The position numbers and the translations under genes were made by a program. Shown here piece by piece: positions 2,372 through 43,225 of a stretch of DNA of 64,000 nt. Source of the stretch: an uncultured Bacilli bacterium (GTDB lineage: Bacteria > Bacillota_I > Bacilli_A > RF39 > UBA660). Where the stretch lies: positions 68,905 through 132,904 of the forward strand of contig CAKPBJ010000001.1 of assembly GCA_934140575.1 (NCBI GenBank), written 5' to 3'. The notes under the pieces are model-generated. The model was not told the origin of the DNA and made no database searches. It saw only the letters and a list, made by a program, of their open reading frames with translations. Each line of letters opens with the position of its first letter. Position 1 is the first letter of the stretch.

Positions 2372-3343
2372 TTAATATTTTAAATATTTCTTTGTTGATA
2401 TGAATGGTTTTGTGTAGTTTCCTTTACTTGTTGGTCTATAGATATAAAAAGTTCTTCCTTCTGTAATGACAGAATCAATAGATGGATATTTGGCATATGT
2501 TGGGGCACTTGGACCACCATCATCATAACTTGCCTGGAACATATTTCCTGTTGTATTAGGAAACTTTTCTCTGGCTAATTTATTTCCTACATATATCATT
2601 GTATGGGTTGAACATATTAATAAATCGCCAGGTTTACATTTTTCATCGAATTTTTCACCAGCATTTACTGTTCCTACATATTTCCACTTTTCAGTATTAG
2701 CTTGTAAGTATTCAATCTGTGTTTTTGGTCCCATTGTATCAAAATCAGGATCTACTGTTGCTCTTATAACTCCTGCTGCTGCTTGAGCACATGATCCATA
2801 TGCATTGTTATCATTATATTTTCCAATTGTTTCGTCCATTACTTCAAAATAGTCATTTAATCTTGAATCATTTATCTTTAACCAAGGGTTCGCATTTGGA
2901 GCATATAAGTGGTCATCTGGAGTTGCTGTTGGAGATAAAGCAACTGCTAATTTTGCTATCTTTTTTCCTTTACTTTCGCTTTTTTCATATTTAGAAGGAT
3001 CTGATTTTATACTTTTTTTCTTCTTAGAATTGTCATTAATATCAACATATGAAGGTGTTTGGTTATCATACTTTGCATTTTTTATACAATTAGTTATATT
3101 ATAATTTGTATCAAACCAAGATAAAATAACATTTATCATTAAAGGGATAAAAAAAGCAACAAAAAGTGCAATTATACTATTTTTAATTTTACTCATCCCA
3201 TTTTTTTGATTAGGTGAAATCATTAATTTAGTAAATTGTGTTATTAAAGATATAATAAGAATTATTGGACAGACAATATTAATTAAAACCATTATATTTT
3301 TTATAATATAAAAGATTTGACTAAGTATTTGATTACATTCCAT
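2372..3343 (-). CDS. membrane-anchored protein with C-terminal papain-like (NlpC/P60- or CHAP-like) putative cell-wall hydrolase domain
   Basis: N-terminal TM helices, Lys-rich linker, C-terminal domain with Cys (YGSCAQAAAG) and downstream His (GDLLICSTHTMIYVG) resembling the Cys/His pair of papain-like amidases. Confidence 0.35.
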   Translation of the reverse strand: MECNQILSQIFYIIKNIMVLINIVCPIILIISLITQFTKLMISPNQKNGMSKIKNSIIALFVAFFIPLMINVILSWFDTNYNITNCIKNAKYDNQTPSYVDINDNSKKKKSIKSDPSKYEKSESKGKKIAKLAVALSPTATPDDHLYAPNANPWLKINDSRLNDYFEVMDETIGKYNDNNAYGSCAQAAAGVIRATVDPDFDTMGPKTQIEYLQANTEKWKYVGTVNAGEKFDEKCKPGDLLICSTHTMIYVGNKLAREKFPNTTGNMFQASYDDGGPSAPTYAKYPSIDSVITEGRTFYIYRPTSKGNYTKPFISTKKYLKY

Positions 3344-3440
3344 GTTACTAATTCACTTCCATTTGCTTACTATAATTAACTAAATTTATTATACTATATT
3401 ATTACGCTAAAATCATTACTATAATTATTTTGCTTTTATT

Positions 3441-3478
3441 AGAATAAAAAATTAAAAAAATACCAAAAATTGGTATTA
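3441..3478 (-). terminator. rho-independent terminator after thiol-disulfide membrane protein gene
   Basis: hairpin AATACCAAAAATTGGTATT followed on minus strand by T-run. Confidence 0.5.
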
Positions 3479-4699
3479 ATTGAATTGAAACATTAACCAT
3501 TCTGGTTTTATTATTAAAAGTAATCCAATAAGGAGCATAATTAGACCTCCTATTAGGTGAGAATATTTTCCATATTTTGTACTTATTCCTGTTGCTTTCA
3601 TGGTATACATTGAAATAGTAAACACTATTATATCATCTATTAAAAAGAATATGATATATATACTAATGTAGATAAATTTTATAAAACCAGATACATTATT
3701 TATAGCAAGTAATTCTGTAAATATTAATGGTAGTCCTGCAGAACAGGCTAATTCTACTAAATTAACGCTTATTGCAAGTCCGATTATTCCAAAAAAAGCT
3801 AATATAAAGCTTTTCTCTGATGTGAATTTTTTTATTTTAGAAAAAATATTTTTTCTTTTTTTTGAATCTACTATTTCACATCCTGAATTTTTACTTTTTA
3901 TAAAACTTTTTAAATTTAGTATTGCTCCTATTAAAGCAATTATTGCAATTATATTTCTAATCCAGACAATTGTTGTTATTTTAACAGCTATACTTATCCA
4001 AGATAACATAATTAACATGTAGACAAGACCTGATGTTATTAAGAATGTAAGTCCAAGAGTCCACATTCTTTTTCTATCTTTCATTCCGATTAGGGCACTA
4101 ATTAAAAATAATAGAATCCACATGGCGCATGGGTTAAAGCCATCTATTAATCCTAAAATTATAGCTGATGTTAGTAATGATACATCTTTTAAATTTACAT
4201 TTCCGACAATCGGTGCTTTTACAGATGTTTCTTTATCAAGTTTTGTTTCTTCTTCCTGAAATTTATCAGATTTTTTTGTGTTTTTTATGGCTGTTCCATC
4301 TTTTATTTCTTTTACTATATCTTTATAGTCATTTTCTTCATAGAAGTTTATAGCTCGTTCTATTTTTTTTCCAGTACTACTTTCATTTTGATATCCTTGA
4401 ATTACGGTATTTCCTATTATTGTTGTTGGTACTCCACTTCTTTTTATATTAAAGTATGACTCTACTTTTGTTAGAAGTGATGCATTGTCATCATCATACC
4501 ATACTTCATATTCTTTTATTTCTAAGTTAGTATACTTACCTTTTATTGTATCTAAATAGTCCATTTCTGCTTTACAATGTGGACATCCATCACCTTTAAA
4601 TACATATAGTGTTAAATTATCTGTTTCTTTGGCATTTACATTAGTAGATATGAAGATTATAGATATTATTATGAACATTAATTTAGCTATCTTTTTCAT
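3476..4699 (-). CDS. membrane thiol-disulfide oxidoreductase: N-terminal thioredoxin-like domain (CPHC) fused to DsbD/CcdA-like transmembrane domain
   Basis: signal peptide, CPHC motif, then polytopic domain with conserved Cys in TM segments (GFNPCAM ... ACSAGLP) as in CcdA/DsbD. Confidence 0.5.
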   Translation of the reverse strand: MKKIAKLMFIIISIIFISTNVNAKETDNLTLYVFKGDGCPHCKAEMDYLDTIKGKYTNLEIKEYEVWYDDDNASLLTKVESYFNIKRSGVPTTIIGNTVIQGYQNESSTGKKIERAINFYEENDYKDIVKEIKDGTAIKNTKKSDKFQEEETKLDKETSVKAPIVGNVNLKDVSLLTSAIILGLIDGFNPCAMWILLFLISALIGMKDRKRMWTLGLTFLITSGLVYMLIMLSWISIAVKITTIVWIRNIIAIIALIGAILNLKSFIKSKNSGCEIVDSKKRKNIFSKIKKFTSEKSFILAFFGIIGLAISVNLVELACSAGLPLIFTELLAINNVSGFIKFIYISIYIIFFLIDDIIVFTISMYTMKATGISTKYGKYSHLIGGLIMLLIGLLLIIKPEWLMFQFN

Positions 4700-42095: not shown

Positions 42096-42192
42096 CTTAA
42101 AGTGTAATGGTTAATTATAAATTTGGAATTTACTATTATTTTTTTATAAAAATTTAATCATAACAATGAGAAAGAAAAAATTTGTCCTAAGC

Positions 42193-42243
42193 AAAATAAA
42201 AGCGTTGATTTCTCAACGTGTATTTCTTAATGGTGGAGCATAG
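42193..42243. repeat. direct repeat copy A: duplicate of tRNA-Ala 3' end (13 nt) plus its downstream terminator hairpin
   Basis: AAAATAAAAGCGTTGATTTCTCAACGTGTATTTCTTAATGGTGGAGCATAG nearly identical to 43094-43145. Confidence 0.8.
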
Positions 42244-42288
42244 TCTAAACAGAATAAAAAGAGAGAGCATCTGTCTCTCTTAGATAGT

Positions 42289-42323
42289 CTTATATGTCCC
42301 TAGCTAAAAGCGTCGCAATGCTA
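42289..42323. repeat. 35-bp direct repeat R1 (downstream of MazF-like gene)
   Basis: CTTATATGTCCCTAGCTAAAAGCGTCGCAATGCTA; 34/35 identical to R2. Confidence 0.8.
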
Positions 42324-42342
42324 TCTATATAATAATATGTAA

Positions 42343-42750
42343 CTACTTTTTGTTTTTATACATTATTTTATTTATATATGAGATGATTTTCATCTTTAAT
42401 ATTTTTTGAGTTTCATCATTTAATACAACAATTTTCCCATCTTTGTTTTCATAATAGTTTTTAATTCTATTTTTAGATATTATTTTCATTTGATCTAATA
42501 AAGCAATCGAATCTGTTTGTTTTAAATATTGCCAACTAAAATGTTTTGTTTCTTTATAATTTCTGTTATTAAATGCTTCTTCTGATTTAAAATGTTTACT
42601 TTTAGGGCTCGTTAATGGAATGCAAAAGATCATATTTTTAATTCCTGGTATAGTATATAATACACCTAAATGGATACTATTAATTTCATTTCCAACATTT
42701 CCAGTAAAATCAATATGGCATAATGTTCCATCTAAAAAACTATAATCCAT
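42343..42750 (-). CDS. MazF/PemK-fold toxin-like protein (solo; no adjacent antitoxin ORF)
   Basis: start likely internal Met (AGGAGG-N8-ATG); GTLCHIDFTGNVGNEINSIHLGVLYT..MIFCIPLTSPKSK aligns with MazF GDLIWVDFDPTKGSEQAGHRPAVVLS..MCLCVPCTTQSK. Confidence 0.5.
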   Translation of the reverse strand: MDYSFLDGTLCHIDFTGNVGNEINSIHLGVLYTIPGIKNMIFCIPLTSPKSKHFKSEEAFNNRNYKETKHFSWQYLKQTDSIALLDQMKIISKNRIKNYYENKDGKIVVLNDETQKILKMKIISYINKIMYKNKK

Positions 42751-42811
42751 TATCTTGCCTCCTAATATAATAAGAAAGAGGAACCTGAGTTCCCCTTTTA
42801 CCAAAAGTAGA

Positions 42812-42846
42812 CTTATATGTCCCTAGCTAAAAGCGTCACAATGCTA
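42812..42846. repeat. 35-bp direct repeat R2 (upstream of MazF-like gene)
   Basis: CTTATATGTCCCTAGCTAAAAGCGTCACAATGCTA. Confidence 0.8.
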
Positions 42847-42870
42847 CCCATAGATGTTTAATTTTGATTG

Positions 42871-42905
42871 ACTAATATGTCCCTCGATTTCTCTTCACAA
42901 TGCAA
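42871..42905. repeat. degenerate third copy R3 with conserved ends and variable centre
   Basis: ACTAATATGTCCCT-CGATTTCTCTT-CACAATGCAA shares ends ACT.ATATGTCCCT / CACAATGC with R1/R2. Confidence 0.6.
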
Positions 42906-43093
42906 TCAATTAACATAATTAATTATGTGTTGCTTATTATAACACATATTATACAAAAAATCAAAATAATAAACTTTAGTTTGATTTCTGTAATTAAATT
43001 GTATATTATTTTATTTCTTATGACAAGTCTTTTTTTCTTGACAGGCATCTCCTCTATTATATTATTATCAAATATTTTTATTTTTACTAATTT

Positions 43094-43145
43094 TTAATTA
43101 TAAAAATAAAAAACGTTGATTTCTCAACGTGTATTTCTTAATGGT
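43094..43145. repeat. direct repeat copy B (native tRNA-Ala 3' end plus terminator)
   Basis: see copy A; contains terminator hairpin ACGTTGATTTCTCAACGT (43103-43120). Confidence 0.8.
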
Positions 43146-43207
43146 GGAGCATAGCGGGATCGAACCGCTGACCTCCACGGTGCAAACGTGGCGCTCTCCC
43201 AGCTGAG
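43132..43207 (-). tRNA. tRNA-Ala (anticodon UGC), CCA encoded
   Basis: minus strand GGGGCATTAGCTCAGCTGGGAGAGCGCCACGTTTGCACCGTGGAGGTCAGCGGTTCGATCCCGCTATGCTCCACCA; G3:U70, cloverleaf with TGC anticodon. Confidence 0.9.
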
Positions 43208-43225
43208 CTAATGCCCCATTAATTA

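Follow-up and report, generated by a model that had tools for sequence, protein, structure and literature searches.

A putative RNA antitoxin paired with a MazF-like toxin in a sub-kilobase cassette behind the tRNA-Ala gene of an uncultured Bacilli bacterium

A cassette of ~0.9 kb lies directly behind a tRNA-Ala gene on contig CAKPBJ010000001.1 of an uncultured Bacilli bacterium, and it is most likely a new toxin-antitoxin family in which the antitoxin is an RNA. All positions given herein refer to the 64,000-nt stretch of this contig that was analyzed (the window), and the cassette is read from its minus strand. The 860 bp between two copies of the tRNA 3' end contain one real gene, which encodes a protein of the MazF/PemK fold, together with three copies of a short structured RNA unit, and the same pairing of RNA and MazF-like toxin is found in more than 50 gut-bacterial genomes. 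More specifically, the cassette is probably a type III-like RNA-antitoxin module with a MazF-family toxin, possibly of the abortive-infection type. An initial annotation of this locus had pointed to a type III-like RNA antitoxin as something to look for beside the toxin gene, and this was the right lead.

The elements of the cassette follow one another on the minus strand in the order promoter, unit A, unit B, intrinsic terminator, AGGAGG, toxin gene, unit C, and second terminator. The promoter is of the sigma-70 type (42936-42964; TTGATT, a 17-nt spacer and TGnTATAAT) and looks constitutive, and its position is kept in other loci, where the consensus is TTGAYT-17-TATAAT. Unit A (42861-42912) and unit B (42801-42853) are separated from the translation start of the toxin by an intrinsic terminator consisting of a hairpin and a T-rich tail (42775-42798), with an equivalent hairpin in the aligned loci, and this is followed by the AGGAGG sequence (42758-42763) and the ATG at 42750. 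The toxin gene itself (42343-42750) encodes 135 amino acids. Unit C (42278-42330) is located in the 3' untranslated region (UTR) directly past the stop codon, and a second intrinsic terminator (42259-42281) closes the cassette. The order from promoter to toxin, including the terminator hairpin in front of the toxin, is kept in 28 aligned loci. What had first been described as a toxin gene nested within direct repeats (R1 and R2, which are units C and B, respectively), and as a possible recombination cassette, is in reality a transcription unit with two RNA units in its 5' leader and one more in its 3' UTR.

The repeats that led to the RNA units are real and beyond chance. Two of them are near-identical and one is degenerate, as originally described, but they are slightly longer than the 35 bp first assigned to them: positions 42285-42329 and 42808-42852 are 91% identical over 45 nt and the degenerate third copy extends over 42863-42910. 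The pattern GCATTGYGA-N10-13-GGGACATAT has three occurrences in the window, all on the minus strand, versus an expectation of 0.00. A total of 115 homologues of the toxin were collected and their loci fetched, for the most part from animal and human gut metagenome-assembled genomes (MAGs) with the labels uncultured Bacilli, "Tenericutes" or Firmicutes, and 71 units from ~45 loci were aligned. In the resulting unit of ~52 nt, stem P1 closes the structure and the variable hairpin P2 lies between two conserved strands, UGCAUUGUGAAG on the 5' side and CGAGGGACAUAUUAGUC on the 3' side, the latter with the consensus CGAGGRACAUAUUAGUC across the aligned units. Almost every locus has two units upstream of the toxin, at about -150 and -90 relative to its ATG and on the toxin strand (42-45 distinct loci), with a spacing of 57-63 nt, and in most loci both copies are upstream of the toxin gene and none is downstream. 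A unit past the stop codon, equivalent to unit C, is present in ~14 other species (L023, L024, L004-6, L001/L022, L034, L039, L066, and L070-75). A covariance model built from the alignment has 128 matches in 61 sources, all of them on the toxin strand, and its only matches in the 64-kb window are units A, B, and C (71.6, 57.8, and 53.2 bits, respectively). A search of Rfam 15 gave no match to the units of the window at E values up to 10, and no match at the gathering score in 20 related loci. A "pemK" RNA motif found upstream of pemK genes may be among the 224 candidates of Weinberg 2017; the main text of that work makes no mention of it, and the motif does not match the units if it is included in Rfam 15.

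The evidence that these units act as folded RNA comes from the way in which their stems change between species. In the proposed structure 93.9% of the alignment cells pair, versus 27-40% in controls with the 3' partners displaced by 1-3 columns, and the covariation score is 0.39 compared to no more than 0.094 in these controls. Changes on both sides are seen in seven of the eight P1 pairs and in all four P2 pairs, G-U pairs occur, and RNAalifold independently yields both P1 and P2. The inner helix (UUGUG with CAUA) is invariant and hence is neither supported nor contradicted by covariation. The lengths of the units vary by 1-4 nt, which rules out that they are coding. A small protein antitoxin encoded across the units was also considered and was rejected, as the length differences are not multiples of three and the clusters of open reading frames (ORFs) only mirror the conservation of the DNA. 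The two upstream units of a given locus share the 6-mer of the 3' loop in 23 of 30 loci, versus 30% between loci, and in none of the 30 are their P1 stems identical. A common loop together with differing stems fits two independently folding units that are recognized by one partner.

The predicted toxin is a divergent member of the MazF/PemK superfamily rather than a ToxN or CptN protein, and probably not a TenpN protein either, as indicated by the Pfam, PDB, fold, and profile alignment results taken together; the direct family comparison covered ToxN and CptN. The only Pfam match of the window protein is to PemK (PF02452), with an E value of 0.02 and a score of 15.1-15.7 bits relative to the gathering cut-off of 23.1. 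The same family is matched by all 44 aligned relatives at E values up to 0.1 (best, 1.6e-9), and many relatives carry a precomputed PF02452 match, while ToxN_toxin is matched weakly by 11 of the 44 (best E value, 0.0014). The AlphaFold model of the toxin has a pLDDT of 91.4, and the best Foldseek matches are MazF of Staphylococcus aureus and of Bacillus subtilis (E 1e-5, TM 0.66-0.78), in agreement with the assignment of a solo MazF/PemK-fold gene in the initial annotation; CptN (4rmo) is found at rank 27 with an E value of 7.6e-4. A profile search of the PDB with the toxin returned only MazF, PemK, and EndoA chains and no ToxN or CptN chain at E values up to 10, while a phmmer search of the PDB was uninformative. 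The toxin cassette is matched by no model of PADLOC or NCBIfam, and PHROGs gave weak MazF-like and MazE-like labels only. By hhalign, the invariant Thr47 aligns with the catalytic Thr48 and the nearly invariant His27 with the catalytic Arg25 of B. subtilis MazF (EndoA), and the result is consistent with the PDB matches. Thr47 and Ser48 are within the PLTS motif of the toxin, which also has an extra C-terminal helix and a 20-residue insertion relative to MazF.

A MazF fold with a conserved PLTS motif points to a toxic RNase that needs a neutralizer, and there is no conserved protein candidate for this role. Across 42 distinct loci there is no conserved neighboring ORF family within 450-520 nt, only spurious ORFs that either coincide with the units or run antisense to the toxin gene, and so the lack of an antitoxin ORF, as originally reported for the window, extends to these loci. 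Conversely, every toxin gene for which enough upstream sequence is available has units, and the loci in which units are missing are either cut off upstream or contain a gene fragment. In one species, identified by scanning metagenome contigs for the DNA pattern, orphan arrays (L086:2070-2214 and L083:7481-7568, minus strand) combine a promoter-like site with two units and a hairpin but lack a toxin ORF, which would be expected of a leftover antitoxin or of an anti-addiction module. Antitoxins are expected to outlive the loss of their toxin, while toxins are not expected to survive the loss of their antitoxin, and units without a toxin in the absence of any toxin without units is the asymmetry expected of an antitoxin. 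We therefore infer that the RNA units have antitoxin activity.

The way in which such a module might function can be outlined from this arrangement. The terminator in front of the toxin gene would end most of the transcripts, so that the RNA would be in excess, and read-through past it would supply the toxin mRNA. The toxin would act as an endoribonuclease, and the RNA units would bind and neutralize it, probably via the invariant strands of the internal loop (UUGUGA and RACAUAU), and might also be processed by it. The motif cleaved by the MazF of Firmicutes is U^ACAU, and the ACAU of the invariant loop resembles it, which suggests either substrate mimicry or processing. If transcription of the cassette were to stop, for example upon phage takeover or loss of the locus, the RNA would decay and the stable toxin would be set free.

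Several points weigh against the proposal of an RNA antitoxin of the type III kind. The single-sequence folds of the window units are no more stable than those of shuffled sequences (z of -0.1 to -1.0) and, with such ordinary fold energies, the structural case is carried by covariation. Tandem Repeats Finder reports no array in 42200-43150, there are just two upstream units, these are not identical and have a 24-nt linker between them, and they are closed hairpins with an internal loop rather than pseudoknots as in ToxI and CptI. The PemK score of the window protein is under the Pfam cut-off (15.7 vs. 23.1 bits) and a His stands in for the catalytic Arg of MazF, which could alter the activity. 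The toxicity, RNA binding, and processing of the putative module are all deduced from sequence. There is, in addition, a quite improbable alternative in which the units serve as a cis-regulatory leader only, such that the MazF-like RNase or some other factor binds them and controls termination at 42775-42798, the protein then being a housekeeping or self-limited RNase. The units are indeed in the 5' leader straight before an intrinsic terminator and ribosome binding site, two tandem units recall the designs of tandem riboswitches and attenuators, and the palindromes at the promoter (see below) hint at extra regulation. However, a 5' attenuator does not explain the third unit past the stop codon in ~15 species, the arrays of units persist without any toxin gene, and the MazF fold with its PLTS motif points to a toxic RNase for which no conserved protein neutralizer is seen. 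That the repeats act at the level of DNA, as recombination sites, iterons or operator repeats of a minimal recombination cassette around the toxin, is highly improbable. Such a role is suggested by the near-identical R1 and R2 that flank the gene as direct repeats in the window, but the stems undergo compensatory changes across species and include G-U pairs, which on the opposite strand would become A-C mismatches, the covariance model has all of its 128 matches on the strand of the toxin, most loci have two upstream copies and no downstream one, and the positions of the units are fixed relative to the promoter, terminator, and ATG and not to the ends of the cassette. The RNA-antitoxin module is thus the reading that we prefer.

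How this module compares with established systems can be seen from the criteria for type III systems, in which a promoter precedes the repeats, the repeats precede a terminator, and the terminator precedes the toxin, with repeats of 31-62 nt in 1.9-5.6 copies and with Tandem Repeats Finder as the detection tool of the survey (Blower et al., 2012, PMC3401426). The type III families listed in a 2025 survey are toxIN, cptIN, and tenpIN (PMC12283969). The cassette has the same locus grammar as these (promoter, short RNA repeats, intrinsic terminator, and toxin), with -35/-10 elements upstream of the repeats (42964-42936) and a Rho-independent terminator directly before the toxin (42775-42798; 28 aligned loci), and its period of 59-63 nt and approximately two copies are within or near the published ranges. 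The repeats, on which Tandem Repeats Finder is silent in the window, consist of two non-identical units separated by a linker in nearly all of the loci. Non-identical repeats have been reported for TenpIN as well (Blower et al., 2012, PMC3401426; tenpIN survey 2025, PMC12283969), and in this respect the two are alike. In its fold the toxin falls into the broad Kid/MazF-like class, as do ToxN and CptN, but its sequence does not place it with either of these, as the match to CptN is at the level of the fold only and that to ToxN is marginal, while the Pfam family that it does match is PemK/MazF. The separation of the units by linkers, the third unit in the 3' UTR, and the lack of an Rfam family also distinguish the cassette from ToxIN, CptIN, and TenpIN.

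The closest structural and sequence relatives of the toxin are found in the MazEF/PemIK systems, such as EndoA/MazF of B. subtilis and MazF of S. aureus. The PLTS motif is kept, including the Thr equivalent to the catalytic Thr48, and the MazF fold is present. The differences are that the PF02452 score of the window protein is below the cut-off, that the operon has no cognate MazE or PemI gene as would be required of a type II system, that no MazE/PemI-like gene is adjacent in more than 40 loci, and that His takes the place of the catalytic Arg. Full-text searches of the literature turned up no report of a MazF/PemK-family toxin preceded by RNA repeats.

Several features around the promoter are also conserved between loci. 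Two palindromes overlap the promoter hexamers (42927-42945 and approximately 42958-42995 in the window) and are in the same positions in other loci. The first, GTGTTATAATAAGCAACAC in the window, straddles the -10 box and has the general form TGTGNTA..TANCACA, and the 3' arm of the other palindrome constitutes the -35 box (for example, AGAAAGTCA..TGACTTTCT). The arms of both covary between loci. Further upstream, ~100 nt before unit A on the minus strand, the motif TATAATAGAG (43052-43061), read from the sequence, is common to many other loci and could represent either a second -10 box or the left-hand portion of the cassette. The promoter palindromes and this motif, kept as CATATAATAGAG at the same distance from unit A, could be either operators or hairpins of a longer RNA. 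A variation on the cassette is found in L085 (105-830, minus strand), in which the same promoter and one RNA unit are followed by ~190 nt of different sequence that ends in a strong terminator, and past this terminator a 127-residue PBECR3 nuclease gene (PF18812, E 5e-16) takes the place of the MazF-like toxin. Cassettes of RNA and nuclease toxin may therefore exchange parts.

In the window the cassette is bracketed by a duplication of the end of the tRNA gene. The intact tRNA-Ala(UGC) gene (43142-43217, minus strand) is the sole tRNA gene of the window (ARAGORN; Rfam tRNA, 64 bits). Its last 13 nt, the terminator hairpin (43113-43130), and the T-run form the tRNA-proximal copy 1 of the duplication (43104-43154), and the 13-nt tRNA 3' end and terminator recur in the tRNA-distal copy 2 (42193-42243), which has a 25-nt extension at 42129-42153. 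The two copies are a direct repeat of 51 nt with 94% identity (52 nt at 96% in the comparison of duplications across loci), located 911 bp apart, and the 30-nt core is found exactly twice in 64 kb versus none in 100 shuffles. Beyond a 43-nt indel that is variable between strains, the duplication continues as a weaker similarity of 25 nt (42129-42153 with 43083-43107, 84%). The duplication reported in the initial annotation is therefore sound and, like the cassette, is present in all 17 contigs of the window species, which are from independent samples. In a scan of genomes, the cassette gave no hit at an identity of 90% or above. The copies differ by 1-2 independent single-nucleotide polymorphisms between contigs. 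Concerted change of the two copies by gene conversion was considered and rejected, as both copies could be read in 12 contigs and vary independently. The enclosed segment had been estimated at ~850 bp without an integrase, and this also holds, as no integrase or recombinase is encoded in the 860 bp or among the genes with Pfam annotations up to 10 kb away in both directions. The genes within 10 kb have housekeeping roles (RelA/SpoT, RadC, MreC, M23, M50, sortase, S21, YqfD, and YbeY).

Comparison with related genomes shows the same site in several states. The sister lineage L080, in which the M50 protein is 91% identical, has the same synteny, but homology breaks off with the tRNA terminator and is picked up again where the sortase gene ends, such that the segment 42076-43104 has no counterpart by blastn and is replaced by 790 bp of unrelated sequence. 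This gap between tRNA-Ala and sortase (L080:4223-5010) is free of units and of a toxin gene, has no further copy of the tRNA end, and contains a 116-residue ORF (4348-4698, minus strand) with no Pfam match. The more distant L082 also lacks the cassette and has a different gene after its tRNA. L024 is still more distant, with the MreC-M23-M50-tRNA-Ala synteny, and carries the cassette at exactly the same place with a toxin that is 72% identical; its tRNA-Ala gene is identical to that of the window and the terminator stem is kept, while a second tRNA-end copy is not visible in the 280 nt before the end of the contig. The second copy is specific to the window species. The search for empty sites proposed earlier did yield two relatives without the cassette, L080 and L082, but not a clean empty site, given the unrelated DNA in L080. 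The tRNA-Ala/sortase site is a hotspot for small variable cargo.

A preference for such sites is seen across the family. In 15 of 56 loci the cassette has a tRNA gene as a close neighbor, at ~300 nt or less except for one case at 460 nt; eight different tRNAs are involved, and in each of the 15 the 3' end of the tRNA faces the cassette. The orphan array of L086 is likewise positioned, with the 3' end of tRNA-Asn ~100 nt away. In six of 37 distinct loci the cassette is flanked on both sides by directly duplicated host sequence. Besides the tRNA-Ala 3' end and terminator of the window, these involve 123 nt of intergenic DNA at 96% identity in L026, the whole of tRNA-Thr in L069 (~100 nt, 82%, with the second copy decayed), 274 nt at 80% in L050, the 3' part of a gene in L045 (270-440 nt, ~80%), and 30 nt at 90% in L057. 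No common terminal motif was found at the junctions of these duplications, and the differences in their host sequence and their lengths, from 30 to ~440 nt, are unlike the fixed att core of a single integrase. The recurrent tRNA 3' flanks and the occasional duplications of host DNA indicate that the cassettes move. The cassette is gained and lost as a unit and prefers tRNA 3' flanks, and its insertion could be due to any of three mechanisms, namely an integrase acting in trans, the decay of a larger island, or homology-driven (Campbell-type) insertion.

The surroundings of individual cassettes are diverse. In L004, L005, and L006 (cassette at 2700-3480) an identical toxin is found in three prophage-end contexts, where the neighbors are lysis genes (XhlA holin and amidase), an Acb2/Tad1-hairpin (anti-CBASS-like) gene, and a serine recombinase. 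A 327-residue ORF beside the cassette of L026 (3773-4756) is by eye a candidate for an abortive-infection-like protein of the AbiD/Abi_2 type, and the ORFs upstream of the cassette of L037 (211-1358) are by eye IS200/IS605 TnpA-like and rve-type transposase-like candidates. In L050 (1500-2980) there is no ORF of at least 60 residues in ~1.5 kb upstream of the cassette, and an unusually G+C-rich part lies within the 274-nt duplication; no Rfam family matches L050:2200-3800.

One route by which the cassette might arrive, doubtful but somewhat more probable than homologous insertion, is that it is a decayed tRNA-integrated island or a mini integrative element moved in trans by a remote integrase, with the tRNA-end copies as attL and attR. 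This concerns arrival only and is compatible with the RNA-toxin interpretation of the content. Streptococcus provides a parallel in the cis-mobilizable elements (CIMEs), att-flanked elements that lack their own recombinase, and toxin-antitoxin cargo is common on tRNA-targeted islands and CIMEs. As in these, a direct repeat of a tRNA 3' end brackets a small cargo without an integrase, and the duplication begins inside the 3' acceptor strand of the tRNA and takes in the terminator. The orientation of the tRNA 3' end toward the cassette in 15 of 56 loci, the cassette of L024 at the same tRNA-Ala with closer relatives lacking it (which fits site-specific targeting), and the copies in prophages beside serine recombinases agree with this as well. 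The direct repeat at both ends is what the attL/attR interpretation that was initially offered would require, but there is no integrase within 10 kb and the second copy is not seen in the 280 nt available for L024. Moreover, a search for the 30-nt att-like core in IMG/VR was negative and revealed no partner element whose att site would match, IMG/VR, INPHARED, and PLSDB have no member of the toxin family, and the sequence past copy 2 is not the native flank of the sister lineage. The window segment is also far smaller, at 0.86 kb, than tRNA islands and CIMEs, the second copy is not conserved in the relative with the same site, and the repeats of other species, rather than being fixed-length tRNA 3' ends, consist of a whole tRNA with its flanks, intergenic DNA or a gene end of 270-440 nt and share no junction motif.

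A second and less probable route is homologous, Campbell-type insertion, in which a single crossover brings in a circular or concatemeric DNA that carries the cassette and a conserved stretch of host DNA, for example a tRNA gene and its terminator. Upon integration, copies of the host stretch would be left on both sides, and recombination between the copies could re-excise the circle. The bracketing repeats are always local host sequence that differs per genome, with lengths of 30 to ~440 nt and identities of 80-96%, there is no recombinase nearby, and tRNA genes and terminators provide the best conserved homology between species, the tRNA-Ala of the window and L024 being identical. On the other hand, such repeats are present in just six of the 37 loci, the first arrival at a new site is left unexplained, no circular junction has been observed, and some of the repeats could be ordinary local tandem duplications or effects of the assembly of MAG contigs. 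Of the three mechanisms, the variable length and identity of the duplicated host DNA fit this one best, if weakly. There is also a slim chance that the cassette is itself a self-contained mobile RNA-toxin unit of less than 1 kb without its own recombinase, which homes to tRNA 3' flanks and other conserved gene ends and duplicates tens to hundreds of nucleotides of host sequence. Such a unit could use homology-driven integration of a circle or its own RNA or nuclease, and it would represent a new kind of minimal selfish element built around an RNA-neutralized MazF. The position of these recombinase-less cassettes at tRNA flanks, with host duplications, raises the testable question of how such tiny cassettes move.

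If the RNA units do neutralize the toxin, the cassette would add to the type III systems a family in which the toxin is a recognizable relative of MazF/PemK, the best-studied of the type II toxins, and would provide a direct evolutionary and mechanistic bridge between MazF-fold nucleases that are neutralized by protein and those neutralized by RNA. The design of the RNA is distinct from that of ToxI and CptI, being a closed hairpin with a conserved internal loop that is present in non-identical copies, one of which is in a 3' UTR. Since units of this kind are missed by pipelines based on finding repeats, similar systems are probably under-counted. The family occurs exclusively in uncultured Bacilli and Firmicutes of the gut, and 216 blocks of the searched collection contain the exact window protein, which makes the cassette a plausible phage-defense or addiction module in a poorly studied part of the human microbiome.

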